A stretch of 64,000 nucleotides of DNA from Eledone cirrhosa (lineage: Eukaryota): positions 232,190,001 through 232,254,000 of the forward strand of contig OZ024741.1 of assembly GCA_964016885.1 (NCBI GenBank), in the 5' to 3' direction. Shown one piece after another: positions 3,781-31,671 of this stretch (position 1 is its first letter; each line of letters opens with the position of its first letter). Both the position numbers and the translations under genes were made by a program. The notes beneath the pieces are model-generated. The model made no database searches, was not told where the DNA came from, and worked only from the letters and a program-made list of their open reading frames with translations.

Positions 3781-3814
<34 letters not shown>

Positions 3815-3942: not shown

Positions 3943-4140
3943 AGTGGAGGATGCAAGGCTTTTATCTTTCTATTAACTCAGGTCCTAATGGTGAGCTAGT
4001 AACAATGTTTGAAAGTAAAGAGGATGAACACTTAGAAGGACGCATCCCCATTAGATTTGATAAACCATACCTAGCGGATACTGTCACCATCACTAATCTC
4101 CGCGGTCGTATACTTTCTTTGTGTGAAGTTGAGGTTTTAG
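3943..4140 (+). CDS. Host receptor gene, internal exon: C-terminal half of an F-type lectin / F5-8 type C (galactose-binding-like) domain
   Basis: Acceptor ttctattaacag, donor G|gtgagt, phase 1-1, 198 nt; WRMQGFYLS...TVTITNLRGRILSLCEVEVLG matches the LxLCEVEV end of these domains. Upstream exons not found in the window. Confidence 0.8.
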
Positions 4141-5130
4141 GTGAGTAAATTCACCCATTTAATTAACTAATCTGTCGAATATTGTATTACTTTAACAGGT
4201 TTTAATCATTGGGCTTCAGCGACTAGTGGGGCACACCAACAAACAATGCCAGTAAATATTTATATATGCTATTTATTTCATAAATGTAATTAGTGCGTCG
4301 TGAAACAGGAGAGAGGGGAGCTGAGAGGCGGAGTTAAGAGAGTGAGGATAAAATTATTTGACCCCGGCAACTATCCATGCGGTATGTGTTTCTGTCTCTA
4401 GACATCGAGTTTCGTTTTTGTTGATTATTTATTGGTTTTAATCTTCGCCGCCAGGTGGTAAATTTGTTTAAGGTTACACCTCTAGTATGATTTCAACCAA
4501 GATTAATGAGCTTGTCCTGCCCATGAAACAGGATGGAGAAGGACAGAAAAAAGGAGAGACACAAAATAACAAATTAATCACTAAGGAGGTAGCACAATGT
4601 GAGACAAAAAAGCTTTGACAATAAATAAACATACATCCTTTTAATAAACCAACCCTCTGGTAATTTGTAATAAATTGAAGGGAATACCAACAAGTGTATG
4701 TGTATGTATTGGCACTATAACCCTTCCAGATTATAGCAATATCTGTTTCAACACACGTTTTCAGATAAGAACACACACACCCACACGCACACACACACAG
4801 ACCCACACAAACACGCGTATGTGTGTGTGCGTTTTTTGTGTGTTTATGTGTGTATGTGTCTGTGCGTGTCTCTCTGTGTGTTGGTGCATATGAGTTTTTA
4901 ATTGTTATTCAGCAATATGTTCCGGCCAGATGAGGCATGCGCAATTCCATTGAAATAAATTAGTTTGTACACCGGTGTATGGTACAAAGAACGCGGAAGC
5001 GGTTTGTGTATATCTGACACCCTCCTTCCCCCGAAAAATCCTCAGTAAACACGAACTTAGACATGAGTTGACATTTTATTGTGCCTGAAGGCTATCTCTT
5101 CTAACCTTGCAAAACTTCCAACTGAGGATA

Positions 5131-5191
<61 letters not shown>

Positions 5192-5200
<9 letters not shown>

Positions 5201-5604
5201 TAAAAGGAAAAGAAAATGCTGACAAATTGTTCCCAGTGAAAAATAGTTTAATTAGGAATAAGTAAAAATTAGTAATAGTATTGGTTAGTATTCAGTTTTG
5301 GTTTTAAGTTTTACCGGTTGCGCATTTCTAATGCTTTTCAAAAATAATTTTGAGATAGAGCGCCCGTGATGTTTGCTCTAATCTGCATGTGTCTATGTGT
5401 CTGTGCGTGTCAGATTAGAGCAAACATCACGGGCGCTCTATCTCAAAATTAATTTTGAAAAGCATTAGAAATGCGCAACCGGTAAAGCTTAAAACCAAAA
5501 CTGAATACTAACCAATACTATTACTAATTTTTGTTTATTCCTAATTAAACTATTTTTCACTGGGAACAATTTGTCAGCATTTTCTTTTCCTTTTACCAAT
5601 ATAT
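5192..5604. repeat. Near-perfect long inverted repeat (194-bp arms, 25-bp spacer)
   Basis: 5192-5385 is the reverse complement of 5411-5604 with few mismatches; sits in the (TA)n tract upstream of EGF exon 1. Confidence 0.95.
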
Positions 5605-5634
5605 CATAACTCGTGTGTTACACCTCTATTCTTT

Positions 5635-5674
<40 letters not shown>

Positions 5675-5696
5675 AGCTTTCTATTCTTTTTCACAG

Positions 5697-5840
5697 AATG
5701 TAAACCCGGATTTTACGGATATTTGTGTGAAATTAATTGTACAGATTGTATAAATACGGCATGTGAAAGTTATTATGGTCTCTGTGATATTGGTTGTAAA
5801 AATGGCTTACCTTGGGATGACGCAATTAAAAGATGTCCAA
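5697..5840 (+). CDS. EGF/MEGF-like exon 1 (ECKPGFYGYLCEINCTDCINTACESYYGLCDIGCKNGLPWDDAIKRCP)
   Basis: tttcacag acceptor, gtaagt donor, 144 nt, phase 1-1, 8 Cys, open frame. Confidence 0.9.
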
Positions 5841-6344
5841 GTAAGTAATATTTTGGTTGGGAAGATATTACTTTTTACATGGTCGTTCTGTAAATGCTGT
5901 TTGTCGGAGGTGTTGGTAGAATGTAGAACGAAATGTCTTGGGGGTACTTGCTCCGTTTCTGTGTCCATCTAGGACTGGAATTGTTTAAGAATTTTGATGA
6001 AATACGTGGTGGCAATATTTGTCTCGGCATTACCAATTCTGAGGTTACATTCTAACATATCCTATCAGGGTGAATTGAGACTAAAGTTTTAACTCAGTTT
6101 ATCTCAGCCTGGCCCTTAATTGCTGTTAGCAGAGTTTATTCTCTTACAAGAATTTGAACATGCCTCTGGTTTCACGATACATTCATTTGTATAACAAGTC
6201 AACTTAGTGACAGGTAAACTTAATCCTTCTCCCAGTTAACAAAAGTCCATGATTTTTTGCTTTCCATTGCGCCTGATCTTCTTCGTAAAGGTAACTCCCA
6301 ACTTAATCTTGTAAGTCCGGGAAACCCTGACATGGCTGACGGAC

Positions 6345-6535
6345 TCTGGTGGATTGGCAGTATCGTTAGAGGGTCGGACGCCATGCTTTGACGCATATAG
6401 TTACAGCCCTTGCCATTCAGAGTTCAAATTCCGCCAAGGTTAACTTTGCCTTTCATCCTTACGGGGTCGATAAAATAAAGTACCAGTAATGCACTGGGTA
6501 ATTGCTGGCCTTGTGCCAAAAGTAGAAACAATTAT
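6345..6535 (+). mobile_element. tRNA-derived SINE (OK-like)
   Basis: A-box-like TGGCAGTATCG, B-box GAGTTCAAATTCC, conserved body ...CCTTTCATCCTTACGGGGTCGATAAAATAAAGTACCAG. Confidence 0.85.
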
Positions 6536-7169
6536 TTGATTAAGCGAAAAGAAGAAATATTTGTTACAAAACATAGCTTACAAAGAGAGCACTCCAGAAA
6601 TCCTCACTATGACAATTACAAGGTCATCTCCTATTAAAAGCAATACACTCTACTTGCATCATACAATTTAGCATATATAGTACATAGAGACGCTAAACCT
6701 AGTAAAATAGACGCTAATTAAATGTATCACCAGCTGAAATTCGGTCTGCTCCTATTTAGTTGCATCTTGGAGACGTTCAAGTCATCACTATAGTCGAAAG
6801 TCGTTAATCTGGTAGACGGAAAATACGGTCAGCCAGGTAGAACGTTCGTTTCGCCATTTTTACTTGCAGTGGTATAGTATACAATCCTTAAATTACTAAA
6901 TATTAGAGATAACTTCTCTAAACATTTGTTTTTTGATTACAATTCACTTATACGATGCGTTCCAACTTACATACATTTTTAAATTTTATATTACTAACCA
7001 TATACAATAATAGATTACGCATAATACTATACATATTTACTTTAAAAATATAATTACATTCACATTCTTAAATTATATGTAAAAAATGCATATATATTAT
7101 TGCTTGATCGATCTTACGCTCATTTATAATTCTATGTCTATATATATAATTAAATAAGATCTATATTCA

Positions 7170-7865
7170 GGCATAATCATTTATGTACCATGTACACGAA
7201 CATGCTAGACAACAACATGACGGTAACATAGACAACATTGTAATTAGAATAATATCTAAACATAGAAATGACCCAGCAGATAGGCAAATCAGAGAGGCCA
7301 GTGAAATAGAAATTAGAAGACCAAGACTAAACAGAAAGAATGAATGGAATAACAACAACAACCATACAACACTGACCTAAGAGAAGTATAAATAAGTAAA
7401 TAAAATAAAATAAATAAATACATACACAAGCACAATAACAACAAGCACATAAACACACACTAGTCACCCATCACACAGCAAACAAAACACTATACACACA
7501 CGCAAACGCATGCGCAAAGAAGACAAAATAAAATAAACAAACAAGCAAATATATAAATAAATATATAGACAGAGTGAAGAAAAATGGCGTAGACATACCA
7601 CACAACAGGAGGAAACGATAACACCACTGACGATGCTGCAGATGTGCAACGAAAGATTTATGATAAACTATATATATGTGTTTGTGTCTATATTGTATCT
7701 GTATTATTTTTGACCGTCGGTCAGTCAATGGCAACATTGAGGACCGAGTAAGTTAGATTACCGATATAAAAGACACACAAGCGAAAAGCGAAACCCAACC
7801 AAACAGTGAGTGTGTTCTGTTATTAATTCTGGCAATATTACACAAATATGACCCTCCCCAAGTAT

Positions 7866-7870
<5 letters not shown>
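7170..7870 (+). mobile_element. Penelope-like fragment (C-terminus of GIY-YIG endonuclease plus 3' repeat)
   Basis: HARQQH...RQIREASEIEIRRPRLNRKNEW resembles the GIY-YIG C-terminus also seen at 51420-51730; its 3' part resembles the reverse complement of 54640-54930. Confidence 0.6.
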
Positions 7871-7924
<54 letters not shown>

Positions 7925-7946
7925 AGTTGTGTATGCTCTTTCGTAG

Positions 7947-8090
7947 GTTGCGAACACGGATTTTATGGATATAAGTGTGAAAAGAAATGTATAGATTGTA
8001 TAGACATGTCATGTGAAACTGATTATGGTGAATGTCTCAAAGGTTGTAACATAGGTATGGATTGGGATGACAAAACTAAAAGATGTAAAG
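7947..8090 (+). CDS. EGF/MEGF-like exon 2 (CEHGFYGYKCEKKCIDCIDMSCETDYGECLKGCNIGMDWDDKTKRCK)
   Basis: ctttcgtag acceptor, gtaagt donor, 144 nt, phase 1-1, open frame. Confidence 0.88.
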
Positions 8091-9709
8091 GTAAGTGAAA
8101 TTTTCGTGGTGAAGATATTACTTTTTACCTGGTCCTCCTATAAACGATGTGTGTCGGCAATGTTGTTAGAGTGTAGAACAAAATGTCTTAGGGTACTTGT
8201 TCCGTTTTCTGCATCCATCTAGGACTGGAATTGTTTTAAAATGTTCATGATATGTGTGGTGGCTATATTTATCTCGGCATTACTCATTCTGAGCTTACGT
8301 TCCAATATATCCTATTAGGTTAACGTGAGACGTAACATTTCACTCTGTTTATCTCAACCTGGCACCTGGTTGTTTTTTGGAGGAGTTTATTCTCTTACAA
8401 GTATTTGCATAAGTCTCTGGTTTGATAATAAATTCATTGGTATAATAAGTCAACTTAGTGATAGTTAAACTTAATCTACTCTCTTAACAAAAGTCCCTAT
8501 TTTTTTTTGGGGGGGGGGGGGCTTTACGGCTGATATTCATTGTAAGGATAACATACAACTTAATATTGTAAGTGCGGGAAACCATGACATGTATCATGGG
8601 CTCTTTCCGTCATGCTTTGATTGAGAGAAAAGAGAAAAAATATGTGGCAAACTAATGCTTATCAAGAGGGCTCCCCAGAAATCATCATTCTCATAATAAA
8701 CTTTTTATCTTCTTTTGAAAGAAATACACTTTACTGGCATCATACAATTTAACATGATTAACACATAGAGTCGCTAAACCTAGTAACTTAGACGCTAATT
8801 AAATGTATCACCATCTGAAATCCGGTCTGCTCCTATCTCAGTTGCATCTTGGAGACGTTCAAGTCATCAGTATTGTTAAATGTCGTTGATTTGGTAGATG
8901 GAAAATATGTTCAGTCAGGAAGGACATTATTTCAGCCATTTTACTTACAGTGGTTGTGATTTACTCTCCACGGAATTCCTCTATTAGTAAACTAGGTTCG
9001 CCAGGTTATCTTGTTTAATATTTCTGATGTACACTAGATAGAACACAATCAGCTTTCTGGCAATGTTTGTTGTGATTTGAGGTCGCTTTGGCATACACAG
9101 TGTAGAGAAGGGCTGGGTCGTATAGACAAATTTTAACATCTGCGCTCATAGTTGATGCTGCGCAAACAAAGCGCATTCACAGGAACACCTTCACGGCCTC
9201 ACCAATACTGCTGATGACGTCCAGTTTTATTGTTGCTATTGTTGGAATACTTCATGCGGTTTCCTAATTTTTGTTGTTGCACACCATAGTCAACTAACCC
9301 AATATTTAGCTGCTACAGATTTGAACTGTTTTCTGTTAAATAGCGAAGTTTACAGACTTTCTCTCCATGGAATTATTTGGCTGGTTCCTCCATGTGACTG
9401 CGTGTCTGTGTGTGTTGGTAAATATATGAGTTTTCAATTGTTATTTAGTAAAGTTTTCGCGCTTGTTTCGTCATGCGCTATCCCTTTGAAAGACAGTATT
9501 TTATAAATCGCTTTATGGTCCAGAGAAAGCTGACGTGGTTTGTGTGCATCTGACAGCCACCTTCTCCCGAAAATCCTTCAGTATTATGAACTTTGGCGTG
9601 AGCTGACCTTATATTGTGCCCGAAAGCTTTCCCCTCTAACACTGTAAAGCTTCAATCGGAGGTAATTCGTATGTATATATTTATGATAGTTGCGTATTCT
9701 CTTTCATAG

Positions 9710-9853
9710 AATGCAAACCCGGATATTACGGATTGAACTGTGTACATAATTGTTCAGATTGTATAGACATGTCATGTGGAAATGTTAATGGTGAGTGTCA
9801 CCTTGGTTGTAAGCCAGGAAAGCAATTGGATCTAGATTCTAGTAAATGTAAAG
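9710..9853 (+). CDS. EGF/MEGF-like exon 3 (ECKPGYYGLNCVHNCSDCIDMSCGNVNGECHLGCKPGKQLDLDSSKCK)
   Basis: ctttcatag acceptor, gtaagt donor, 144 nt, phase 1-1, open frame. Confidence 0.88.
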
Positions 9854-11400
9854 GTAAGTGAAATTTTCGTTGGGAAGATCTTACTTTTTAACTGGTCATT
9901 CAATAAATACTGTGTGTCGGAAGTGTTGTTAGAGTGTAGGACAAAATGTCTTTGGGTACTTGTTCCGTTTTCTGTATCCATCTAGGACTCAAATTGCTTA
10001 AGGATTTGGACGACATTTGTGGTGGCAATATTTGTTTGGTTTTACGCATTCGGAGCTTACATTCCAATAAATCCTATTAGAATAAAGTGATAAGTAGACT
10101 TTCACCCCGTACATCTCAACCCCGCTCTTAGTTGCTTTTAGCAGAGTTTATTCTCTTGCAATTAATTGAACATGGCTCTGGGTTGAAGATACATTCATTG
10201 GTATGACTAGTCAACTTAATGAGAGTTAAACTAAATCCTTCTCTAGGATAACAAAAGTCCCTGATTTTTTTAGTTTGTTTGCGGCTATTCTAATCTGTAA
10301 TGATAAATTACAACTTAATCTTGTCCGGTAAACATCGACATAGATGATGGGCTCTATCCTTCATGCTTTGATTAAGCGAAAAGAAGAAAAATATGTGGCA
10401 AATAGCTTATAAAGAGGGCTCCTCAGAAATCATCTCTCTGATAATATAATTCTCATCTTCTTTCGAAAGCAATAGACTTTACTTGCATCATACTATTTAG
10501 CATACATAATACATAGAGACGCTAATACTAGTAAAATAGACACTAATTAAATGCATGGCCAGCCGAAATTTGGTCAGCTTTTATATCTGTTGCATTATGT
10601 CTTTGATCTGTTAGACGGAAAATACGTTCAGCCAGGTAGAACCTTCGTTCCGCCATTTTACTTAGAACGATTGCGATTTGCTCTCCACGGAATTTTTTTT
10701 ATTTTTAAACGCGGTTTGCCAGTTGATCTTTTGTAATCTTTCTCAGCCAAAATTGATGGAGCACATTCAGCTTTCTGGAAATCTTTGCTGTTTTCAGGTC
10801 GCTTTAGCATACACAGTTGTGTGGAGAACGACTGTGTCGTAGAGACAAAGTTTGACCCTGAGCAAACAAAGCGCATACATTGAAATACCATCACAGCCTT
10901 TCCAATACTGCTGATGACGTGCAGTTCATTGTTGCTTTTGTTGGATCACTTCACTGCGGCTTCATTAAATGGTGCGGTTTCCCACCATCAGCAACTAACC
11001 CAATATTTTGCTGCTGCAGATGTGAACTAGTTCCTGATATTAAGGCGATGTTGACAGACTTGTGTGTGCTCTACATGGAATTCATTTGCTGGTTACACCA
11101 TGACCGTGCGTGTTGGTGCATATATGAGTTTTTAATTGTAATTAAGCAAAAGTTTCGCGCTGGATTAGGCATACGCAATCCATTTGAAAGACACTATATT
11201 ATACATCCGTTTATTGTACGGGGAACGCTGAAGTGGCTTGTGGCAGCCTCCTCTACTGGAAAACCCTCAGTAATCATGAACTTTGACATAAGTTGATTTT
11301 TATTGTGCCCGAAAGCTATCCCTTCTAACATTGCAAATCTTCAATCCTAGGATATCTATATATGTATATGTTTGTGATAAATGTGTATTCTCTTTCACAG

Positions 11401-11544
11401 ACTGCCCACCCGGATATTACGGATTGAAGTGTGCAAATAATTGTACAGATTGTATAGACATGGAATGTGAGAATTATATTGGTAAATGTGTAAAAGGTTG
11501 TCTCAAAGGTATGGGTTGGGATGACGAAATTGAAAGATGTGAAG
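11401..11544 (+). CDS. EGF/MEGF-like exon 4 (DCPPGYYGLKCANNCTDCIDMECENYIGKCVKGCLKGMGWDDEIERCE)
   Basis: ctttcacag acceptor, gtaagt donor, 144 nt, phase 1-1. Confidence 0.9.
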
Positions 11545-13124
11545 GTAAGTGAAATTCTCGTTGGGAAGATATTACTTTTTATCTTGTGGTTCTATAAATG
11601 ATGTGTCGGAGGTGTTGGTAGAGTGTAGAACAAAATGTATTGGTGTACTTGTTCCATTTTCTGTAACCTTCTACGACTGGAATTGTCTGATAATTTTGAT
11701 GACATGCGTGGTGGCTATATTTGTCTCGGAATTACGCATTCTGAGCTTCACATTCCAATATATCGTATTAGGGTAAAGTGAGACGTCAAATTTCACTCCG
11801 TTTTTCTCACCCTCGCCCTTGGTTGTTTTTTGAGGAGTTTATTCTCTTACAAGTATTTGAATAAGTCTCTGGTTTGAAGATAAATTCATTGGTATTCCAA
11901 GTCAACTTAGTGATAGTTAAATTTAATCCTCTCTGTTAACAAAAGTCCCTGATTTTGTTTAGTTACTTTGCGGCTCATCTTCACTGTAAGGATAACATAC
12001 AACTTAATCTTGTAAGTCCGAGAAATCATGACATGGATCATGGGCTCTATCCTTCATGCTTTGATTAAGCGAAAAGAAGAAAAATATGTTGCAAACCATA
12101 GTTTATCAAACGGTTCCCCCAAAATCATCAATCTGATAATATAATTTTCATCTCCTTTTGACAATTTAGCATAATTAACACATAGAGTCGCTAAACCTAG
12201 TAACAGATACTAATTAAATGTATCTCCATCTGAAATTCGGCCTGGTTCTATTTCAGTTGCATCTTGGAGACGTTCAAGTCTTCACTATTGTTAAATGTCG
12301 TTGATTTGGTAGATGGAAAATATGGTCAGCCAGGAAGAACCTTATTTCAGCCATTTTACTTATAGTGGTTGTGACTTTCTCTCCACGGAATTCTTCTATT
12401 AGTAAACTAGGTTCGCCAGATTATCTTGTTTAATATTTCTGAGGTACACTTGATAGAACACATTCAGCTTTCTGGAATTCCTTGCTGAGATTTCAGATCG
12501 CTTTGGCATACACAGTGTGGAGAAGGGCTGGGTCGTATAGACAAAGTTTGACATCTGCGCTCATAGTTGAGGCTGAACAGACAAAGCGAATTCACTGGAA
12601 CACCTTCATCGCCTCACTAATTCTGCTGATGACGTCCAGTTTTATTGTTGCTATTGTTGGATAACTTCACTGCGGCATCCTAATTGTTGCTGTTGCCCAC
12701 CATTTTCAACTAACTCAATATTTAGCTGCTACAGACCTGAACTGTTTTCTGCTAAGTTAGCAAAATTTACAGACATTCTCTCTATGTTTTTCATTGGCTA
12801 GTTCCACCATGTGTCTGCATGTTTGTGTGTGTTGATGCATATTTGAGTTTTCAATTGTTATTTATTAAAGTTTTCGCGCTTGTTTAGTCATACGCTATCC
12901 CTTTGAAATACAGTATTTCATAAATCGTGTTATGGTCTAGAGAACACTGAAGAGGTGTGTGTGTATTCTACAGCCCACTTCTCACGAAAATCCCTCAGTA
13001 TTATTAATTTTGACGTGAGTTGACCTTTTATTGTGTCCGAAATCTATCGCTTCTAACCTTGCAAAGGTTCCATCGTAGGTTGTTTATATATATATTTATG
13101 ATAGTTGTGTATTCTCTTTCACAG

Positions 13125-13268
13125 GATGCAAACCCGGATATTACGGATTGGAATGTGCAGAACGTTGTACAGATTGTGAAGACATGGCATGTGATAAGTA
13201 TACTGGTAAATGTGAAAAAGGTTGTATCAGCGGTATGGTTTGGGATGACGTAATTAAAAGATGTGTAG
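13125..13268 (+). CDS. EGF/MEGF-like exon 5 (GCKPGYYGLECAERCTDCEDMACDKYTGKCEKGCISGMVWDDVIKRCV)
   Basis: ctttcacag acceptor, gtaagt donor, 144 nt, phase 1-1. Confidence 0.9.
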
Positions 13269-13278
13269 GTAAGTGAAA

Positions 13279-13404
13279 TTACGGATATATGTGTGAATAT
13301 AATTGTAGATTGTCTAATCATCTCATGTGGAAGTTTTAATGGTGAGTGTCACCTTGGTTGTAAGTTAGGAAAGGAATAGGATAAAACTTTTAGTAAATGT
13401 AAAG
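13279..13404 (+). pseudogene. Dead EGF exon copy (exon-3 type) lacking its acceptor
   Basis: Begins about 10 nt after the exon 5 donor; 5' end and acceptor deleted; frameshift and a TAG; donor gtaagt retained. Confidence 0.85.
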
Positions 13405-14957
13405 GTAAGTGAAATTTTCGTTGGGAAGATCTTACTTTTTAACTGGTCACTCAATAAATACTGTGTATCGGAAGTGATGTTAGAGTGTAGGACAAAATGT
13501 CTAGGGGTACTTGTTCCGTTTTCTGTATCCTTATAGGACTGAAATTGCTTAAGGATTTGGACGACATTTGTGGTGGCAATATTTGTCTGGGCTTTACGCA
13601 TTCTGAGCTTACATTCCAATATATCCTATTAGAATAAAGTGATAATTAGACTTTCAGCTCGGTTATCTCAACTCGGCCCCTGGTTTCTTTCAGTAATTAT
13701 TTGAACATGGCTCTGGGTTGAAGATACATTCATTGGTATGACTAGTCAACTTAATGAGAGTTAAACTAAATCCTTCTCTAGGATAACAAAAGTCCCTGAT
13801 TTTTTTAGATTGTTTGCGGCTAATCTACTCTGTAATGATAAATTACAACTTAATCTTGTCCGGTAAACATCGACATAGATGATGGGCTCTATCCTTCATG
13901 CTTTGATTAAGCGAAAAGAAGAAAAATATGTGGGAAATAGCTTATAAAAAGGGCTCCTCAGAAATCATCTCTCTGATAATATAATTCCCATCTTCTTTTG
14001 AAAACAATAGACTTTACTTGCATCATACTATTTAGCATACATATTACATAGAGACGCTAATACTAGTAAAATAGACACTAATTAAATGCATGGCCAGCCG
14101 AAATTTGGTCAGCTTTTATATCTGTTGCATTATGTCTTTGATCTGTTAGACGGAAAATACGGTCAGCCAGGTAGAACCTTCGTTCCGGCATTTTACTTAG
14201 AACGATTGCGATTTGCTTTCCACGGCATTTTTTTTTATTTTTAAACGCGGTTCGCCAGTTGATCTTTTGTAATCTTTCTCAGCCAAAATTGATGGAGCAC
14301 ATTCAGCTTTCTGGAAATCTTTGCTGTGTTTTCATGTCGCTTTAGCATACACAGCTGTGTGGAGAACGACTGTGTCGTAGAGACAAAGTTTGACATCTGC
14401 ACACATAGTTGACCCTGAGCAAACAAAGCGCATACATTGAAATACCATCACAGCCTTTCCAATTCTACTGATGACGTGCAGTTCATTGTTGCTTTTGTTG
14501 GATCACTTCACTGCGGCTTCATTAAATGGTGCGGTTTCCCACCATCAGCAACTAACCCAATATTTTGCTGCTGCAGATGTGAACTAGTTCCTGATATTAA
14601 GGCGATGTTGACAGACTTGTGTGTGCTCTACATGGAATTCATTTGCTGGTTACACCATGACCGTGCGTGTTGGTGCATATATGAGTTTTTAATTGTAATT
14701 AAGCAAAAGTTTCGCGCTGGATTAGGCATACGCAATCCATTTGAAAGACACTATATTATACATCCGTTTATTGTACGGAGAACGCTGAAGTGGCTTGTGG
14801 CAGCCTCCTCTACTGGAAAGCCCTCAGTAATCATGAACTTTGACATAAGTTGATTTTTATTGTGCCCGAAAGCTATCCCTTCTAACATTGCAAAGCTTCA
14901 ATCCTAGGATATCTATATATGTATATGTTTGTGATAAATGTGTATTCTCTTTCACAG

Positions 14958-15101
14958 AATGCCCACCCGGAAATTACGGATTGGAGTGTGCAAATATATG
15001 TATAGATTGTGTAGGTGTGGAATGTGATAGTTATATTGGTAAATGTGAAAATGGTTGTTTCGAAGGTATGGGTTGGGATGACGAAATTAAAAGATGTGGA
15101 G
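14958..15101 (+). CDS. EGF/MEGF-like exon 6 (ECPPGNYGLECANICIDCVGVECDSYIGKCENGCFEGMGWDDEIKRCG)
   Basis: ctttcacag acceptor, gtaagt donor, 144 nt, phase 1-1. Confidence 0.9.
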
Positions 15102-15869
15102 GTAAGTGAAATTTTCGTTAAGATATTACTTTTTACTTGGTCGTTCTATAAATGCTGTGTGTCGGAGGTGTTGGTAGAGTGTAGAACAAAATGTCTTGGG
15201 GTACTTGTTCTATATTCTGTAACCATCTAGGACTGGAATTGTTTAAGAATTTTGCCGACATGAATGGTGGCTCTATTTGTCTCGGCATTACGCATTCTGA
15301 GCTTACATTCGAATATATTATATTAGGGTAAAGTGAGACGTCATATTTCACAGCTGTGTGGAAAACGATTGTGTCCTATAGACAAAGTATGACATCTACA
15401 CTCATATTTGAGCCTGAGAAAACAAAGCGCATTCACTGGAACACGTTCACAGCCTTTCCTATTCTGTTGATGACGGTCAGTTCATTGTTGCTATTGTTGG
15501 ATCACTTCACCGTGGCTTCCTAAATGGTGCTGTTGCCCACGATCAACAAATAACCCAGACTTGAATGTTCTCTCCATGGAATTCATTGGCTTGTTCCACC
15601 ATGCCCGTCCGTGTCTATGTGTGTTGGTGCATATATAGGTTTTTCATTGTAATTTAGGAAAACATAACGCTTGTATATGCATAGGCAATTTAATTTGTAC
15701 ATCGATTTTTAGTCTAGAGTAAGCTGACGAGGTTTGTTTATATCTGACAGACTCCTCTCGAAAAACGCTCAATAATTATGAAATTTGACCGTTGACCTTT
15801 TATTGTGCTCGAAATCTATCCACAGTAACATTTCAAAGCTTTCATCGGAGGGTCTCTGTATATATATAT

Positions 15870-17304
15870 ATATATAAACAATGAGTTATTTGGTTTGTTG
15901 ATTATTCAACAAAATTAATTTTACAATAGATTAGAAGCACTCAACAGTTTTATCCGGAGCATCATTAATATCAATGATATTAATAAATGGAAAATATCTT
16001 TATAGGACCATATTTATTTTACTATACGTATTTCAAGGTTACCTATATTTAAGGGCGCTTTGGTCAGATAAAATATAATAATTGGTGTTAAGATAGTGAC
16101 ATATCTTAATGTGAACAGCATGTTATAAGTTCAGTGAAGATAGTGAAGATAATTTTTTGTAAACTCAAGAGGAATATACTAATGAGGATAACGTTAAAAC
16201 TGAAAAGATCCGTTAATTTTAGACTAGATAAATTGAAAATATTTATATACTTTGTTAAAAAAAGTGTGCCATTAAATTTGAAAATGTTATTGTAGAGTTA
16301 TTTTTAAAATAATTATTTAGTACATAAAGTATTATGCGTGAATATAGATCTTATTTATGTATATATATAGAAATAGAATTATAAATGACCGTAAGATAGA
16401 TCAAGCAATAATATATATGCATTTTTTACATATACTTTAAGAATGTGAAAGTAATTATATTTTTAAAGTAAAGATGTATAGTATTATATATAATCTATTA
16501 TTGTATATGTTTAGTAATATAAAATTTAAACATTTATGTAAATCGAAATGTATCGTATATGTGAATTGTAAACAAAACCATCTTTTAAGGGAAGATAATA
16601 CTAATATTTAGTAATTCAAGGAATCTACACTATAGATATGTAAAATATATTGTTTTATCTAATGTTTAACATAATAATTAATTTTAATTTATATTATAAG
16701 ATAAGTAAACATTTCTATACGAGTTTAGAGCACCATATAGTAAATATGGTGTTGATAATAATAAATAATTAAATATGTATATGTATAAACTTTGATAATA
16801 ATAAATATTTCTATGTATAAATTTGATGATAAGAAATATTTCTATGTATACATTTAAGAACATTTAAAGACAACCAAAAATATATACTGTACATAGGCAA
16901 CCTATATAGACCATACTGTAGTAGCTTCTATGTATTATAAATATTCTGAAATGTTCTGAAGAATCGATGCAAACAAGAATTAAATATTTCTCTTTTTTTT
17001 TTTGTTAATAATATTACCAGGATTGGTAATGATATGAAAGATTTCTTCAATACAGAGATGACAAATTCTTGAGAGAGCCATATTTTAGTAAAGTGGTAAA
17101 ATGCATCGATTCTCCAGAACATTTCACAATATTTATAATTAGGTTAAACATTAGATAAAACAATATATTTTTAAATATCCATACTATACATTCCTTAAAT
17201 TACTAAATATTAGAGTTACCTTCCCTTTAAATATTTTTTGTTTACAATTCACATATACGATACGTTCCAACATACATAAATGTTTAAATTTTATATTACT
17301 AAAC
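15870..17304. mobile_element. AT-rich inserted repeat with internal inverted repeats (unclassified, possibly Penelope-derived)
   Basis: Interrupts a duplication unit at its (TA)n tract; about 16505-16670 is inverted at 17140-17303; about 16332-16630 is inverted at 6875-7176. Confidence 0.55.
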
Positions 17305-17896
17305 ATGTCATATAGACAAAGTTTGACATCTGCGCTCATAGTTGAGGCTGAACAAACAAACCGCATTCACTGGAAAACATTCAGCGCCTCACCAATACTG
17401 CTGATGACGTCCAGTTTTATTTTCCTATTGTTGGAATACTTCACGCGGCTTCCTAATTGTCGTTGTTGCCCACCATTGTCAACTAACCCAATATTTAGCT
17501 TCGGATGTGAACCCTTTTCTGCTAAGATGGCGTAGTTTACGGACTTTCTCTCCATGGAATTCATTGGCTAGTTTCACCATGTGTCTGCATGTCTGTGTGT
17601 ATTGGTGCATATATGAGTTTTCAATTGTTATTTAGCAAAGTTTTCGCGCTTGTTTAGTCATACGGTATCCCTTTGAAAACAGTATTTTATAAATCGTGTT
17701 ATGGTCTAGAAAAAGCTGAAGAGGTGTGTGTGTATCTGCAGCCTCATTTTCCCGAAAATCCTTCAGTATTATGATCTTTGAAGTGAGTTGACCTTTTATT
17801 GTGCCCGAAAGCTATCCCTTCTAACCTTGCAAAGCTTCCATCGTAGGATATCTGTATATATATATATTTATGATAGTTGTGTATTCTCTTTCACAG

Positions 17897-18050: not shown

Positions 18051-18179
18051 TTACGGATATATGTGTGAATATGATTGTACAGATTGTCTAAATATGTCAT
18101 GTGGAAATGTTTAATGGTGAATGTCACCTTGGTTGTAAGATAGGAAAGGAATGGGACGTAGATTTTAGTAAATGTAAAG
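18051..18179 (+). pseudogene. Second dead EGF exon copy lacking its acceptor
   Basis: Same fused junction GTAAGTGAAATTACGGA as at 13269; +1 frameshift (GTT TAA); donor degraded to gtaaat. Confidence 0.85.
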
Positions 18180-19366: not shown

Positions 19367-19510
19367 GATGCCCACCCGGATATTACGGATTCAAGTGTGT
19401 AAATAATTGTACAGATTGTTTATACATGAAATGTGATATTTTTATTGGTAAATGTGAACAAGGTTGTATCGAAGGTATGATTTGGGATGACGAAATTGAA
19501 AGATGTCAAG
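19367..19510 (+). CDS. EGF/MEGF-like exon 8 (GCPPGYYGFKCVNNCTDCLYMKCDIFIGKCEQGCIEGMIWDDEIERCQ)
   Basis: ctttcacag acceptor, gtaagt donor, 144 nt, phase 1-1. Confidence 0.9.
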
Positions 19511-19698
19511 GTAAGTGAAATTTTCGTTAAGATATTACTTTTTACCAGGTCGTTCTATAAATGCTGTGTGTTGGAGGTTTTGGTAGAGTATAGAACAAAA
19601 AGTATTGTGGTAGATGTTCCGTCTTCTGTATCCATCTAGGACTGGAATTGTTTAAGAATTTTGACGACATACGTGGTGGCATTATTTGTCTCGGCATT

Positions 19699-19890
19699 GG
19701 ATGGCAGGTGGATTGGCAGTATCGGTAGAGGGTCGGACGTCATGCTTTCCAGCATAGTTACGTCCCTTTACGATCTGAGTTCAAATCCAGCCGAGGTTAA
19801 CTTTGCCTTTCATCCTTACGGGGTCGATAAAATAAAGTACCAGTAATGCACTGGGTAATTTCTGGCCTTGTGCTAATAGTAGAAACAATT
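19699..19890 (+). mobile_element. tRNA-derived SINE (OK-like) with 18-bp TSD
   Basis: Flanked by ATTATTTGTCTCGGCATT at 19681-19698 and 19888-19905; other units show the empty site. Confidence 0.9.
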
Positions 19891-20439
19891 ATTTGTCTCG
19901 GCATTACCCATTCTGAGCGTGCATTTCAATATATCCTATTAGGCTGAATTGAGACTAAAGCTTTCACTCAGTTTATCTCAGCCTGGCTCTTGGTTGCTTT
20001 TAGCGGAGTTTATTCTCTTACAACAATTTGAACATACCTCTTGATTCACGATACATTCATTTGTATAACAAATCAGCTTAGTTATAGTTAAACTTAATCC
20101 TTCACTCAGTTAACAAAAGTCCCTGATATTTTGCTTTCCGTTACGTCTGATCCTCTTCGTAAGTGTAACTCCCAACTTAATCTTCTAATCCGGAAAACCC
20201 TGACATGGATGACGGGCACTATCTTTCTTTATTTGATTAAACGAAAAGAAGAAAGGTTTGTTGCAAACCATAGCTTATGAAGAGAGCTCCCCGGAAATCA
20301 TCACTCAATAACACCTCCTATTGAAAGCAATACACGTTACTTGCAGCATACAATTTAGCATACATAGTACATAGAGACGCTAAACCTAGTAAAATAGACG
20401 CTAATTAAATGTATCACCAGTTGAAATTCGGTCTGCTCC

Positions 20440-21005
20440 TATTTTAGTTGCATCTTGGAGTTCATGTCATCACTATTGTCGAAAGTCGTTAATCTGGTAG
20501 ACGGATAATACGGTCAATCACGTAGAACGTTTGTTCAGCCCTTTTTACATGCAGCGGTTGTGATTTGCTCTCCACGGATATTTTTATTTGTAAACAAGGT
20601 TCGACAGGTGATCTTTTGAAATTTGTTTGAGGTCCCTTTGATGGAACACATTCAGCTTTCTGGCAATCTTTGCTGTGTTTTCAGGTCGCATTGGCATACA
20701 CAGGTGTGTGGATAACTACTGTGTCGTACAGGCAAAGTTTGACAACTGTACTCATAGTTGAGCCTTAGCAGACAAAGCGCATTCACTGGAAGACTTTCAC
20801 CGCCTTTCTAATACTGTTGATGACGTCCAGTTTTATTGCTGTTACTGTTGGATCATTTCACTGCGGCCTCCTAATTGGTGTTGTTGCCCAGCATAGTCAA
20901 GTAAACCAACATTTAGATGCTACAGATTTGAACTAGTTCCTACTATTAAGGCAACGTTGACAGATATGTATGTTATCTCCATTGAATTCATTGGCTGTTT
21001 CTACC
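20440..21005 (-). mobile_element. Antisense RTE-clade LINE relic (representative copy; homologues near 8830-9650, 10600-11330, 12250-13070, 14140-14890, 15350-15850, 17305-17840, 18560-19310)
   Basis: Minus-strand translation across frameshifts gives DVINSIRKA..VF, VKLCLYDTVV..PVYANAT*K, KLNVFHQR..KQI..., which resembles the RT C-terminal region of RTE LINEs. Confidence 0.7.
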
Positions 21006-21009
21006 AACA

Positions 21010-22400
21010 ACTCTTTTAAAACCAACATTAGCAACCAGTAGTACAAGAGGGAACAGGGGAAGCACTCTTGGATTGGTTCTCAAACAATGTTATCTTAGTC
21101 CGTTGTTCCAGGCATATAAAGTTGCTTAAAAATGGTTAGTGGGAAACTACATAATAGAACAATGCTTCAGGGTCATTTTCTTGGCACACTATCAAATGCT
21201 TTCTAGAACTCGATGATACTAAAACACTAGTGGTTTCAGATATCCGATACAGTGTTAAATGATGCTAGTCAGAATGAACATTTGATCAAGGAATATGCTG
21301 TTGTTTCAAAAGGCAATAAGTACTTCCCATTGGACAGAATCTACAGCATGGTGTAGTATTCTAAGTAGCAGTGTGCAGAACAATTTGTATGGGATCAAAA
21401 AATGTGATCTCTCGTCAGTCTTCGCAAGCTACCAGATTACCCTTTTTTAGTAACTTTCTAATAATCACTTGTTTACTCTCCGTGGATAGTGGCCCTTAAT
21501 TCCAGCAGTTGTACATCAGCTTGGTCATTGCTGAAATTATTCTGCTGTCATCAAACTTCAAAAGCTTTTTTGAGTTCTCATTCAATCCAACAGATTTGTT
21601 ATTCTTCAAAGAATTTAGTGAAATTATCATCTCCCTTACTATAATTGTTTCCCTGGCAGGCATACAGAGGTGTGTCGACTGCTGGTGTATAAAAGCTGAA
21701 TTCAAACAAAGTAACTGTGGCTGGCTAGTTTATCTCCTGGAAGTGTTCGATCCATCTATATCTTGCTCTTTACTTGTCACCAGCCTTTAAATTCTTTTCA
21801 TTTATTGTCATGCTCACATTTCATCAGACGCCTGTTAACTCTCTTACAGTATTACACATGGTTATTGATTCATTTCCATCCGCCCCTTCCTCAGCCTCCG
21901 TGCACGTTTTCCCTCGCGAGGGCAATTTATTTCGACTCATTATGCAGCATCTGTTTTTCCTTCGTTTCACTTCTTGCTATGTCCCTTAAGAATTTTTGCC
22001 TTCAATCTTCAATCGATTAATTCCAAAACTGTTCGCAGAGGCACGGCTCTCATTTTGATCACCTTCGTCTCTTATATAGGGGTTTACTATTCTTGAGTCT
22101 CACCCTCACTGCAGCTCACTGCAAATATTAGACTGATCCAATGTGTCCCCCACTGCACAACCTGACATCCGACAGCATTAATTTATATTAATGTAGTCGT
22201 TTCCCATGCAAGAATTCCTCTCCGCTGACTGCAAGATTATTTTATGTATGAGTACGTGCCGGAAATAGGATTAGCAAATTCTGTGGTTGTTGATGTAGCA
22301 GAAAAACAGCACGAGTCCTCCGTTATCTTTGTCTGCTGGGCAGAACCTAACGGTACGATGACACGGTATTACTGAAGCCCATATTCACGAGTCACCTATA
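21010..22400 (-). mobile_element. Decayed LINE (RTE-like) RT/EN fragment truncating the last duplication unit
   Basis: Minus-strand LKNNKSVG motif and IEF*KAFDSV (about 21190-21220). Confidence 0.65.
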
Positions 22401-25922: not shown

Positions 25923-28120
25923 CAGGGGTCACCAAACTCTTTTCACCGTGGGCCGGATAACTGACAGAATGACGAGCGCGGGACGCATAATCATTCTGTT
26001 CAATACTTGCAAGCCAGAACGAAAGCTCTGGGAAAAAAGACGAAACACTACGTTTAGCATTCCATGTTAATCGTGGGTGAGTGGCGTGCAATGCATAAAA
26101 GGCAAAGACAACCAACATATTTATTTACTAAAAAGTTATCAAAGGAGGCGACGTTAGCAAAAATATAGTTACATCAGCCCTATCCGAATCTTACAAACTA
26201 AGCAGCAAAAAAGGTTAGTGAGATTTGGGAAACTGTCGTTTGGCTTTCAAGATATCATCAATGTTTTGTTTGGAATTGCTGCATCCAATCAAGAGAATTG
26301 CTTTCAAATGTTCATCAGTCAATCTCGTTCGATGTGTTGACTTCACATACTTCATTTTTGAAAATGTTTGCTCACAGACATAAGTTGTTCCAAACAATGA
26401 TGCCATACCAGCGGCAAATTTCTTCAATTTCGGAAACTCAACATCAGGTAAGAAGCGGTAAAATTCAACAAGTTTTCCTTCTCAGTGCTTCTCTTTCAAC
26501 AAGTCATTTGCTTGCAAATCAATGAGTTCCAACTGTAGTTCAACTGGATTCTGGAACAGAAGAATGTCACTCTCAATTCTGTCGAGATCTGAAAATCTCT
26601 CCAACAAATGCTTCTTCAAGTCACGAATAATCTTTTTTAGGAAAATCGATGTTGACATCTTCAGCAATTGTAGCGCAAAACTGTTTGAAACAGTGAAAAT
26701 GAGAGAAGTTTTCTCCTTCCAGTTGTGCTTCAAACGATGACAGCTTTCTCCGAAATCCTTTGATGATTCTGTAGAGATCACAGACAAGGTTATCCTTTCC
26801 CTGAAGTTTCAAGTTCAGTTCATTCATGTGGGATGTGATGTCGACCAAAATTGACAACTTTGACAGCCAGGTAGGATCTGACAGCTGTGGATCAGCTCTA
26901 TATTTTTCAGCGAGAAAAACATCTAATTCGTTTCTGAGCTTGTAAAAACGAAACAGGACTTTACCGCAGCTGAACCACCTCACTGCTGTGTGATAAGGCA
27001 AGTTACAGAAATCAGAATCAATTTCTTCAAGAAAAACCTGGAACTGACGGTGATTGAGTGCATGTCCCCGAATGAAGTTCACAGCAGAAACGACTGGTTT
27101 CAGTACACAAGAAATATCCAACTCTTTCCCATAGAGTGCTTGCTGATGTATGATGCAGTGTATGAACAGAGCGCCCCGAATTTGCAAATCTTCCAACTGA
27201 GTCCTGATCTCCCCCACCAGACCCTTCCTCACTCCAGCCATGTTTTTTCCACCATCAACTGTAACACTTGGAACTGATTCCACTGAAAGTTTTCTGCACT
27301 TCCATGAAAATGTATTTTCCAGTTGTTGTTCCATGCATGCAGCAAACGGATGCCAACTCTTCCTTTATCTGAAAGTCCAAATTGACACCACGAATGAAGA
27401 CAAGAAGTTGTGACGTACTCGAGAGATCAGTAGACTCATCCAGCGCCTGAGAATACCACAAGTTCCTAGCTTTCTCTCGTATCTGTAGCACTATGTTCTC
27501 TCCAAGTTCTTCTGTTCTCCGCGCAACTGCACTTGCTGAAAGGCTGATATTTCCAAACAAATCGGCTTTCTGAGGACACAAGTCATTTGCTGCTTCCATG
27601 ATACAGTCTTTAATGAAGTTGCCATCAGTAAACGGTTGTCCTTGCTCTGTCAACTTATGCACTATTTTGTAAATTGTACGAGTGACAGATTTATTTTCAG
27701 CAAACTTTCTTGCGGAGAGATTTCTCTGAGACTCTAAACCACGTTTCATGGACACATATTTCACAGAGCGTAACGTTCCAGAAAACTTTAAATATGTTGA
27801 TAGATGTTTTGTTTCATAGTGACGCCGGAGATTTTACTCTTTCAAAACGGCAACACTTTCACTGCATACCACGCAACTAGCTTTCTGGTCCTTTGTTTCC
27901 ACAAAGAAGTACTTTACTCCCCATTCTTCATTGAAAACCCGACACTCGGCGTCCACTTTTATTTTCTTACTAGCAATAATAAAGGGTGAAGAAAATGGGA
28001 TCTGAAAATGAAAAAGACATTGAATTAGAAACATTTCGTGTTCCATCCGTTTTATCACGCAAATGCAAGTACCGTCGGCGGGCCTGATCCGGACTGCGGG
28101 CCGCAGTTTGGTGACCCCTG
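25923..28120 (-). mobile_element. hAT (Charlie/SPIN, GTF2IRD2-like) DNA transposon with broken transposase
   Basis: TIRs CAGGGGTCACCAAACT / AGTTTGGTGACCCCTG; perfect 8-bp TSD GTGTAATT; motifs ALDESTD, TVDGGKNM, IHCIIHQQAL, FGTTYVCEQTFSKM. Confidence 0.95.
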
Positions 28121-29199: not shown

Positions 29200-29990
29200 A
29201 TTCAAGAAATGTCAGATCATCCTAATCTGTAGATGTCCAACAGACTGTAGGGAAGATTGATACCTGGAAGGCACCAGGTATTGATGGTATTCAGTCTTGC
29301 TTCATAGATGTGACAAAATTGGGTGGACATTTACCGTTTGATTGCTGATAATCGGAGACGTACGCCTGATTCTCAACTATGGATGCATGCGATACTTGTT
29401 TCCTTGTTCAAGGGGAATAACTCTTCTTGGAACAGGGGGTAATGTTTTTGCAAATCATCTCTCTAATAGGCGAACCAAATGTATTTGCCCTTGAGTGATT
29501 AAGTAGACACAATGTAGCTTTAGACTAGGCAGGAGGTTTATGCCAACTTTAGACCAGCTTTAGACCAGCTTTAGACCAGCTTTAGACCAGCTTTAGACCA
29601 GACAGGAGCACAATGGACATGATCGTTCTTGCTGAGCAGCTGAAGGTAAAATGTTTAGAATGTCACGTGGTTTTGACCCAGGTTTTTATTGACCTCACCA
29701 AGATATTGACTCCGCGAATACGGATGATCTGTGGACCATTCATGTTAAGGAGAAATACACACCGGGTTTCGTGAGATTGTTCAAACAACTACATCGAGGG
29801 AAGAAAGGGAGGGTTTACTCTGCAGGTTGTCTGTCTAAACTCATAGCCATTTTAAATGGCGTTCAAACAAATAGACATCCCAGCACCGACTCTGTTCTCC
29901 TTGTTCTTCGTCGTGATACTCAAAGAAGCTTTTCAGAATTGCGATATATGTGTGTACCTACATTTCAGAACCACGGAAAGAGTGGAGAAT
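29200..29990 (+). mobile_element. Decayed RTE LINE RT fragment
   Basis: GKAPGIDGI, FRPDRSTMDMI, VFIDLTK motifs; internal 11-bp tandem repeat (TTTAGACCAGC) about x5 at 29548-29600. Confidence 0.7.
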
Positions 29991-30101
29991 TAACAGAATA
30001 TTATATTTTGACAATTTAATATGCCGTGAGTTAAAATATATATATGTATATATATGATTCTTTACAGACGAGGGCCACCTCTTCAACACTGTTGTTAGAT
30101 T

Positions 30102-30137
<36 letters not shown>

Positions 30138-30142
30138 GAGAG

Positions 30143-30183
<41 letters not shown>

Positions 30184-30354
30184 GAGAGAGAGAACGGGTT
30201 AAAAACCGCTCGGTAAAACGTGCGTACGTGAATATGGTTTGCTTAATTGTTGTGGAACTAACTCTATATCGAGATATAACCTCCATTCTTTACCACTGTG
30301 TATATATATCTATGTGTGTGTGTGTGTATATATATTTAGATTCTCTTTGATCAG

Positions 30355-30445
30355 TGTCAAATTCCGCGGCTATGGTGAAGATATTTGTAATTGGATTGTT
30401 GCTGATCCTCTGTCTCCTTGGAATGGGGTTAATGTACTTATTCTG
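30355..30445 (+). CDS. Host receptor gene, transmembrane exon (VSNSAAMVKIFVIGLLLILCLLGMGLMYLFW)
   Basis: ttctctttgatcag acceptor, TG|gtatgt donor; phase 1 in (matches the EGF exons), phase 2 out; hydrophobic stretch of about 22 aa. Confidence 0.8.
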
Positions 30446-31150
30446 GTATGTGATTTTTTTCTTTTATCATAATTATTTTTCTAACTAATACTTGATTTTG
30501 CATGAGTATGAGGTGTAGTTATATAATCAATAATAATACTTTTTGTTATATAGTTGGATATGAGGGTAATGGAACTCAGTAGATTTCAGCGATGAGTGTT
30601 CAAATTATTTGGTGACTAAAATTAGCTAATTTTTAAAGAACTCTTTAACTTAATTTCATTCATAAACCTTAATTGTAGCCAAAGGTTATGTTAACAAACA
30701 GTAATTCATAATACCATGCAGTGGGAGCGATATCATAACAGCATGAAATTAATATTTGCCGCAATTCGTCTATGCTGCGCTCATTGAGGCATACACTTTA
30801 CTTAATTCCTAAGTCATAAAATTACAACGATATATATGAATACATATTTTCCCCTTTACGTGGCTTTTTGTGAAAATGAATTGCCACTTATATTGATAGC
30901 AAATTAAATAATTGCCATGATATTGCAATAAATATTGGACAAAATTATTGCTTCATATTTCTTGCCCAGGGAATTTTGTTAGATTTCTTTACTTGACACC
31001 GACTCAGTATTTGTGTTGATGTTGAAACGATAACATAAATATGTCTCAAAAATATTTGAACACTGAGACACCAGTCAAAAAGCTATAAAATTTACATTAT
31101 ATTGGAAGTTAGAAATGTCAGTGGTGTGAATGTGTTCGACTTTAACAGCA

Positions 31151-31231
<81 letters not shown>

Positions 31232-31469
31232 CTGTAGTAGTATTGCTTATAATAAATATTTCTAACACAGGTAACCTCATATAAACTAACATGACATATT
31301 TATTAAGAAATGTAATCGCTGTGCTCTATATGAATGTTAAATAATCTACCGACGACGTAGTTGCGACGAAAACCAAAATCCTCTCGCAGCGTAAGAGATA
31401 AAGTAAGCGAGATAAGTTTCTATTACGTGACACACTGGTTGATAATAAAATATTTACATGATGTTTCAG

Positions 31470-31671
31470 GAAGAAAAGACGCGGAGTAATGGAAGGAGAA
31501 GAAGAAGAAGAAGAAGAATGGGACGATGAAGAAGAAGAGGAAGAAGAAGAACATGATGAAGAAAAAGAAGTTGAAGAAGAAAAAGAAAAAGAAAAAGAAG
31601 AAGAAAAAGAAAAAGAAAAAGAAGAAGAAAAAGAAAAAGAAGAAGAAGACGGAGGAGAATCAACACATTAA
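31470..31671 (+). CDS. Host receptor gene, terminal exon: WKKRRG stop-transfer signal and Glu/Lys-rich cytoplasmic tail
   Basis: gtttcag acceptor; phase-2 join TG+G gives Trp, then KKRR directly after the TM helix; in frame with ORF 31489-31671 to TAA. Confidence 0.8.

Follow-up and report, generated by a model that had tools for sequence, protein, structure and literature searches.

We analyzed a 64,000-nucleotide stretch of the genome of the octopus Eledone cirrhosa (hereafter the window; contig OZ024741.1 of assembly GCA_964016885.1, positions 232,190,001 to 232,254,000), in which eleven predicted exons between positions 3943 and 31671 of the forward strand appear to form the 3' part of a gene. 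Joined together, these exons give one open frame of 547 amino acids with a lone stop at its end; the other two frames contain 30 and 72 stops. The product would be a type-I membrane protein with a lectin-fold head, a stalk of eight epidermal growth factor (EGF)-like modules, a transmembrane helix, a basic stop-transfer sequence and an acidic tail. All eleven exons have an AG acceptor and the ten internal ends have a GT donor (in exon order GTGAGT, eight times GTAAGT, and GTATGT), with phase 1 throughout the repeat array and phase 2 past the transmembrane exon. A first model-made reading of the DNA (the original prediction) had proposed these in-frame exons, with GT-AG ends and phases 1 then 2, and the 547-residue join bears this out.

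In order to assess the splice sites, we scored them with a matrix of approximate textbook frequencies. The donors fall in the 98.1–99.9th percentile among the GT sites of the window, and the acceptors of exons 1–9 in the 96.8–99.9th. Some points weigh against the model. The acceptors of the transmembrane exon (percentile 91.2) and of the tail exon (94.4) are the weakest of the chain, a 10.8-kb intron separates these two exons from the repeats, and the joins of the whole chain are predictions from sequence alone. Three sequencing runs from one sample (their kind is not recorded, and they are possibly the source of the assembly) mapped to 3900–21100 with depth in 30 of 30 bins, introns included, and thus behave as DNA. 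The 15 mapped-run joints shown, of about 1,020, each bridge two copies of an interspersed repeat, and none of them is informative on splicing. We consider it highly probable that the gene is real and spliced as modeled. The 28-kb gene of the original prediction therefore holds as an exon chain and not as a complete gene, because the chain has no ATG, no signal peptide and half of a lectin domain. When bases 1–3942 of the window were searched with a profile built on the corresponding upstream part of the relatives, no matching exon turned up; judging from the relatives, the gene likely starts to the left of the window, where the signal peptide and the N-terminal half of the lectin domain would also be encoded.

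Exon 1 of the visible part (3943–4140, forward strand, phase 1 at both ends) encodes about 65 residues of a lectin domain of roughly 150 residues. Using tblastn, it aligned with Octopus proteins XP_029645473.2 (44% identity, E = 7e-10) and XP_014769031.1 (39%, E = 8e-8), and over three proteins, the third being XP_052834032.1, the alignments to the C-terminal half of the lectin domain range from 38 to 44% identity and from E = 9e-5 to 7e-10. The Octopus regions matched by exon 1 are PF22633/PF00754, which points to the C-terminal half of an F-type-lectin-fold or galactose-binding-like domain. The lectin-like domain of the original prediction is thus supported by three alignments, for the C-terminal half that is present. 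The Pfam comparison that it had called for gave a match to PF22633/PF00754 for the relatives' regions and none to a lectin or EGF family for single exons: at the cut-off, neither exon 1 nor any single repeat matched such a model. A lectin profile built from bivalves did not recover exon 1 either, a word-index protein search with this exon gave 18 candidates with none at E ≤ 1, and a search of PDB sequences with it gave a chance match (E = 1.4). In the Atlas, the best matches to exon 1 are unnamed, and one F5/8 type C cluster at 0.92 is a lead only.

The fold of the lectin domain is suggested by the relatives. The predicted structure of Octopus protein P0174, from the XP_052834032.1 cluster, has a mean predicted local distance difference test score of 65 (87–95 over its long-loop repeats), and its best structural matches are F-type lectins (1k12, AAA, and 3cqo, FBP32; E ~2e-8). 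Exon 1 ends in C-E-V-E-V, which has the Cys-Glu-x-Glu of the F-type lectin end strand (Cys146, Glu147 and Glu149), and it keeps the last Arg of the fucose triad, the sole triad position inside the window. Unlike AAA, FBP32 and oyster bindin, exon 1 has a single Cys and so lacks the inner disulfide Cys108–Cys124, and the repeated unit of the Eledone gene is the EGF module, not the lectin domain. The available passages of one source give the fucose motif as H-X24-R-X-D-X4-R/K (PMC5712786). The closest relative, XP_029645473.2 (P0058), has a Ser at the position of His52 and no Asp after Arg79, which makes fucose binding doubtful.

Eight EGF-like repeats follow exon 1 on the forward strand, identified by their Cys pattern, frame and alignment: R1 (5697–5840), R2 (7947–8090), R3 (9710–9853), R4 (11401–11544), R5 (13125–13268), R6 (14958–15101), R7 (17897–18040) and R8 (19367–19510). 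Each is 144 nucleotides long and encodes 47 amino acids. Sixteen positions are invariant, including the eight Cys, which are intact at all 64 positions over the eight repeats. The repeat ending GxxWDDxxxRC of the original prediction holds as GxxWD[D/E]xxxRC in seven of the eight; the exception is R3, whose divergent loop has Leu in place of Trp. A scan for the Cys pattern beyond 19510 found chance matches only. Five exon bases of the window read differently in contigs assembled from the sequencing runs (8082 and 8087 in R2; 17994, 18025 and 18032 in R7). Four of these change an amino acid, and each was seen in a single contig, representing a second allele or a further paralogue.

By analogy with the relatives, each repeat exon would form one four-disulfide module of an extended stalk. 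A profile of the eight repeats matches the structure of SCARF1 (8hna, E = 1e-4), and the Atlas neighbours of the repeats are EGF_laminin/EGF_PEAR1L. Against this, the structure model of a single repeat is poor (predicted template modelling score of 0.42) and has no structural match at E ≤ 0.001. Of 352 candidate proteins, the same profile retrieved 23; of these, 22 are molluscan, 10 contain PF22633 and 4 a tyrosine phosphatase, in agreement with the earlier suggestion that membrane proteins combining lectin and EGF domains are common in molluscs. An exhaustive profile search gave 804 representatives at E ≤ 0.001, of which 150 were listed. Among the matches listed, ten were looked up, picked mainly for full-length repeat matches, and three of these ten are Octopus proteins.

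The last loop has 12 residues in this repeat type. We measured 1,338 last loops in 171 fetched proteins: 1,174 of them have 8 residues and three have 12, all three in Octopus. The motif that the original prediction thought might be lineage-specific is therefore found in these proteins only in Octopus, and it is not unique to the gene. Based on these sequences, the long-loop motif is an octopus subtype that this gene has amplified, not one that it invented. Last loops of 11 residues, of other kinds, occur in the MEGF-type proteins P0010, P0027, P0036, P0046, P0096, P0104 and P0132 (P0010, the only one named, is from the bivalve Mya arenaria). This loop may have been lengthened on more than one occasion during molluscan evolution.

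The transmembrane exon (30355–30445, forward strand, phase 1 in and phase 2 out, with a split Trp codon) was recognized from its frame, its hydropathy and the relative P0174. It is missed under a stricter acceptor cut-off. Among the 46 candidate exons that are open in phase 1 between 19560 and 59500, it ranks first in hydrophobicity (2.68, versus 2.01 for the runner-up). In P0174 the transmembrane segment is followed by Trp-Lys-Lys-Arg, which matches the join of 30445 to 31470. Hydropathy and homology thus predict a single transmembrane helix with a basic stop-transfer sequence, and the helix, WKKRR and Glu-rich tail of the original prediction find support in both. The terminal coding exon (31470–31671, forward strand), identified by frame and composition, encodes the stop-transfer residues KKRR and then a 66-residue acidic tail (37 Glu, 4 Asp, 11 Lys and no Tyr) ending in a TAA stop. 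The DNA of this exon is a GAA-rich microsatellite. A candidate polyadenylation signal, AATAAA, lies 134 nucleotides 3' of the stop (31805–31810, forward strand), and a second hexamer at 32103.

The sole Trp of the tail stands in Glu-Trp-Asp-Asp (31516–31527), which resembles the acidic motifs that bind Arp2/3. It also resembles the W-acidic motifs that bind kinesin light chain, possibly by chance (PMC6214655, available passages). One reading would make the protein a neuronal or epithelial identity or adhesion molecule whose tail would engage the kinesin-1 light chain in the manner of calsyntenin. Its basis is this lone Trp inside an acidic run, given that EWD-type motifs bind the TPR domain of the kinesin light chain and can drive the transport of membrane proteins (PMC6214655, same passages). 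We give this reading a very slim chance: a Glu stands at position −2 from the Trp, where the SKIP motif described there has Leu, a GAA microsatellite can yield such a motif by chance, and the motif is not present in the relatives examined.

A phosphatase domain, present in some relatives, was sought with a tyrosine phosphatase profile built from 40 proteins. In six frames of the window the best match has E = 0.7, and no phosphatase exon was found with a search that recovered three of six control fragments at E < 1e-5 and five of six at E < 0.15. We consider it likely that the main form has no phosphatase. Alternatively, the gene could be a decaying receptor phosphatase gene in which a microsatellite wrecked the juxtamembrane exon, or the phosphatase exons could lie past the window and be reached by another splice. 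The tail does begin like the relative's juxtamembrane exon before it runs into GAA repeats, a weak in-frame GT follows 31485 (score −2.4), and the window ends 32 kb further on, in a satellite. We think this alternative quite unlikely, since the window contains no phosphatase-like piece, the stop and the AATAAA follow the tail, the frame of the ectodomain is intact and relatives without a phosphatase exist (XP_014769031.1).

The relatives closest in architecture are Octopus proteins. XP_052834032.1 of Octopus bimaculoides (P0061, in a cluster with P0173 and P0174) combines a lectin-fold domain with two long-loop repeats, a transmembrane segment and a phosphatase. Its cluster resembles the Eledone protein in the C-terminal half of the lectin domain (39–45% identical), in the long-loop repeats (37–53%) and, in P0174, in the W-K-K-R after the transmembrane segment; it differs in having two long-loop repeats instead of eight and in running on into a PF00102 phosphatase. 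XP_029645473.2 of O. sinensis (P0058) and XP_014769031.1 of O. bimaculoides (P0178) are 39–44% identical over the lectin C-terminal half, have the same NSG-x-NG insert and likewise lack the inner Cys pair. In both, one long-loop repeat follows the lectin domain, and the further repeats are of the ordinary type with an 8-residue loop. P0178 ends in a transmembrane segment and a short tail, with no phosphatase. P0181 of O. vulgaris, as annotated, has no long-loop repeat, and none of P0058, P0178 and P0181 has an acidic tail. Protein searches found no close match to the predicted protein, so the gene may be unannotated.

Given the lectin or galactose-binding fold before an EGF array, the multiple EGF-like repeats and the predicted single transmembrane helix with its basic stop-transfer, the predicted protein almost certainly belongs to the molluscan family of receptors with multiple EGF repeats and a galactose-binding domain (MEGF/GBD), and we file it under the recognition receptors of that family. 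We do not class it with the receptor phosphatases, the canonical fucolectins or the MEGF10/Draper orthologues, whose defining features are absent or lie beyond the reach of the analysis. MEGF10, Draper and CED-1 are defined by NPxY and YxxL tyrosine motifs and an N-terminal EMI domain. The Eledone protein shares with them, and with SCARF1, 8-Cys EGF-type repeats and a type-I topology, and it differs in that a lectin-fold domain directly precedes its repeats. A tail without Tyr has neither NPxY nor YxxL, and the MEGF10/SCARF-like character that had been proposed fails in the signaling sense. The 'MEGF10-like' names carried by molluscan relatives are automatic database labels.

We compared the gene with the best-described molluscan system, the schistosome-resistance region SudRes1 of the snail Biomphalaria sudanica, for which passages of one paper were available (PMC12297450). 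There, 10 of 23 genes are MEGF genes, and three of these encode receptor phosphatases with a galactose-binding domain. The family was tied to parasite resistance by a genome-wide association study, some of its members lack a phosphatase, and the number of EGF repeats varies, with a loss of EGF repeats in a resistant snail. The SudRes1 receptors and the Eledone protein are alike in combining a galactose-binding or F-type-fold domain, an EGF array and a single transmembrane segment, and the SudRes1 family is rich in paralogues with variable EGF counts. Unlike the SudRes1 receptor phosphatases, the Eledone protein has no phosphatase domain and has a Glu-rich tail; its eight repeats are all of the long-loop Trp type, with 12 residues, and come from exon duplication within the gene. 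The same passages report nonsynonymous diversity and contain no repeat-level dN/dS test. In the portions available of two further papers, many transcripts of MEGF and receptor-phosphatase genes are expressed by oyster haemocytes (PMC13070813), and the three genes with raised expression in both resistant lines of B. glabrata include a MEGF gene (PMC13619432).

The array itself was compared with blastn against the window. The exon-plus-intron units of about 1.7–2.2 kb are 74–92% alike over blocks of about 1.9–3.8 kb, and a two-exon block at 9722–11796 is duplicated at 13275–15351. Past R8, a last stretch of unit intron (19890–21006, forward strand, 75–77% alike to the other unit introns) has no repeat exon after it. 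Two dead copies of R3 type lie on the forward strand within the array. The first (13275–13403) is fused directly behind the donor of R5 and has no acceptor, a 2-nucleotide deletion and an in-frame stop; the second (18047–18179) lies behind the donor of R7 and has no acceptor and a 1-nucleotide insertion. Read-through from R5 or R7 into these copies is barred by an in-frame stop just past the donor. Their joins to the R5 and R7 donors fall at a short shared stretch, which suggests that the dead copies arose by deletion. Contigs from the sequencing runs carry two extra bases at 13303, within the first dead copy. The original prediction had counted the eight intact repeats correctly and had overlooked these two copies, together with the phosphatase-bearing relative and the selection signal described below.

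Divergence along the duplicated blocks is patchy, which makes unequal crossing-over or conversion likely. An intron patch at 10700–11395 and its copy upstream of 14958 are 1.1% divergent up to the exon edge, beyond which divergence is 12.5% between the R4 and R6 exons and 10% in the downstream intron; this patch is a recent conversion or crossover tract. A tree of the repeats (28 rows, 48 columns) lacks the support needed to group the eight as one clade, and repeats of the Octopus relatives nest among them. The case for exon duplication within the gene therefore rests on the homology of the introns, not on the repeat tree.

To assess how the repeats changed after duplication, we used codon models written for this analysis. 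The proportion of nonsynonymous differences (pN) exceeded that of synonymous differences (pS) in 26 of the 28 repeat pairs (means of 0.26 and 0.15), and the one-ratio model M0 gave an omega of 2.1–2.3 over the repeats (p = 0.02–0.04). Under two frequency models, M2a fitted better than M1a, with twice the log-likelihood difference (2dL) at 24.7 (p = 4e-6) and 18.4 (p = 1e-4); M2a placed about 35% of the codons in a nearly fixed class and about 65% at an omega of 4.7–6.3. A test for recombination within the repeat exons gave no signal (p = 0.92). Synonymous divergence is 0–6% among R4, R5, R7 and R8 and for R4/R6, versus 10–25% in most of the flanking introns.

We then took the flanking introns as a neutral baseline, for two sets of six units. 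The variable codon class evolved 3.6 times (upstream introns) and 2.1 times (downstream introns) faster than the introns (p < 1e-7), and the conserved, framework class at 0.02–0.05 of the intron rate. A fit with a free synonymous rate still put the variable class at 2.2–3.7 times the intron rate. In a comparison that uses no tree, with framework positions taken from the repeats of the Octopus relatives, pN outside the framework was higher, for 23 of 24 pairs, than the intron distances available. Intron sequences treated as pseudo-codons gave an omega of 0.65–1.13.

Several results weigh against selection as the cause. Synonymous change runs at about 0.3 times the intron rate (p ~0.003–0.01), which is unexplained and inflates plain dN/dS. 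Two of the six intron controls are themselves nominally significant for M2a over M1a (p < 0.05), with 2dL ≤ 7.1 as against 16.5–24.6 for the exon sets. These tests draw on eight times 47 codons of one mosaic locus, and the pairs are not independent. The intron controls are imperfect, because R4 and R6 are 1.1% apart just upstream and 10% just downstream. Over whole exons, nonsynonymous change lies significantly above the upstream intron in one of four close pairs, and that pair is confounded; for the others p is 0.50 (R4/R8), 0.15 (R5/R7) and 0.07 (R6/R8). Conservative tests on disjoint pairs gave p = 0.004–0.17, below 0.05 in five of eight settings. The contrast between the R4/R6 exons (12.5%) and their upstream intron (1.1%, p = 3e-9) was likewise not accepted as clean evidence, given the 10% divergence of the downstream intron.

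On these grounds one can argue that the gene is real and its repeats are a mere spacer, multiplied by unequal crossing-over and drifting neutrally at the non-framework codons. The selection signal would then stem from low synonymous change (through splice enhancers, codon bias or conversion) and from mosaic introns, as the reduced synonymous rate, the patchy introns, the three non-significant whole-exon comparisons and the two nominally significant controls would allow. Nevertheless, the variable class outpaces the introns even when the synonymous rate is free, and the tree-free comparison agrees with the excess in nearly every pair. Moreover, if the introns alone had been homogenized, a high dS would be expected, whereas the observed dS is low. 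We therefore regard a neutral spacer as unlikely and, from the sequence comparisons, think that diversifying selection has probably acted on the repeats. The constraint on the framework, and the confinement of frameshifts and the stop to the two unspliceable copies, also count for a functional gene.

Tandem exon repeats with dN > dS, together with the F-type fold in relatives, could also fit a gamete- or mate-recognition protein. Oyster bindin offers a precedent, as its F-type lectin repeats diversified through positive selection, recombination and splicing (PMC5712786, available passages). We consider this role very unlikely for the Eledone gene: bindin repeats the lectin domain, whereas here the EGF stalk is repeated, and the proteins nearest to the Eledone one are of the receptor-phosphatase and MEGF types.

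The explanation that we favor, with a confidence that is about evenly balanced for the whole, is that a gene for a single-pass lectin-plus-EGF surface protein, likely a functional one, has its 3' part in the window. Its single long-loop EGF exon would have been copied in tandem to eight intact, diversifying repeats and its phosphatase end likely replaced by a short acidic tail, leaving a recognition molecule or decoy that has no catalytic activity. Fast-changing positions set in a fixed framework are what one expects of a contested binding surface, and so the stalk likely engages or evades a partner that itself changes; its surface would then bind ligand and be contested, instead of serving as a spacer only. 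Having neither a phosphatase nor a tyrosine, the protein would not signal as its relative does; it might capture, block or present a foreign ligand without signaling alone, perhaps beside phosphatase-bearing relatives. By analogy with the snail receptors, an immune or parasite-facing role is slightly favored, and the target would most likely be parasites or microbes. The earlier proposal of a candidate recognition receptor is supported as such, with recognition of pathogens, self/non-self or gametes as putative roles.

A more elaborate scheme is also conceivable, and we regard it as improbable. Octopuses would have a paired system of phosphatase-bearing lectin-EGF receptors and phosphatase-less decoys, in which serial copies of a cephalopod-type long-loop EGF exon are driven apart by positive selection into a multi-specific ligand array within a single gene, and a tail born from a microsatellite carries a possible kinesin-binding motif.

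The rest of the window is AT-rich and full of microsatellites and remnants of mobile elements, and no second host gene was seen in the 64 kb. Inside the 10.8-kb intron, a 2,198-bp DNA transposon (25923–28120, reverse strand), presumably a hAT element, has perfect 15-bp terminal inverted repeats, an 8-bp target-site duplication and a transposase broken into at least two frames. An interspersed high-copy repeat of about 190 bp, which we take to be SINE-like (a short interspersed nuclear element), occurs in copies that are 84–92% alike at 1191–1299, 6348–6538, 19701–19893, 32962–33161, 46076–46154, 47001–47194 and 54935–55124, two of them in introns of the gene. Intron 1 contains a palindromic high-copy element between TA runs (about 5150–5650), presumably MITE-like (a miniature inverted-repeat transposable element), and a larger inverted repeat (69%) lies downstream at 50796–52612. 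Broken open frames at 1750–3150, 32500–35700, 43534–45975, 47694–48400 and 56141–57327 resemble what we take to be a DNA transposon, a Helitron, an RTE-type long interspersed nuclear element and two Penelope-like elements. A 35-bp tandem satellite (59723–64000; 122 copies, 94% match) runs off the end of the window.

The receptor family and its phosphatase-less members are already described; new are the eight repeats that come from duplication of exon and intron together, the two dead copies, the selection signal and the microsatellite-derived tail. The literature searched, with most subscription papers outside its scope, contained no description of a long-loop array within a gene combined with a selection signal and a microsatellite tail. 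If the selection signal were an artefact, the gene would be an ordinary member of a large family. The immune and self-recognition receptors of cephalopods are poorly known. Here it would be the EGF stalk, and not the lectin tip alone, that diversifies repeat by repeat, which points to the stalk as a site of ligand binding. The locus is an in-place record of the birth and death of exons, with eight live and two dead copies, and it likely also records the exchange of a phosphatase for a microsatellite-derived tail.

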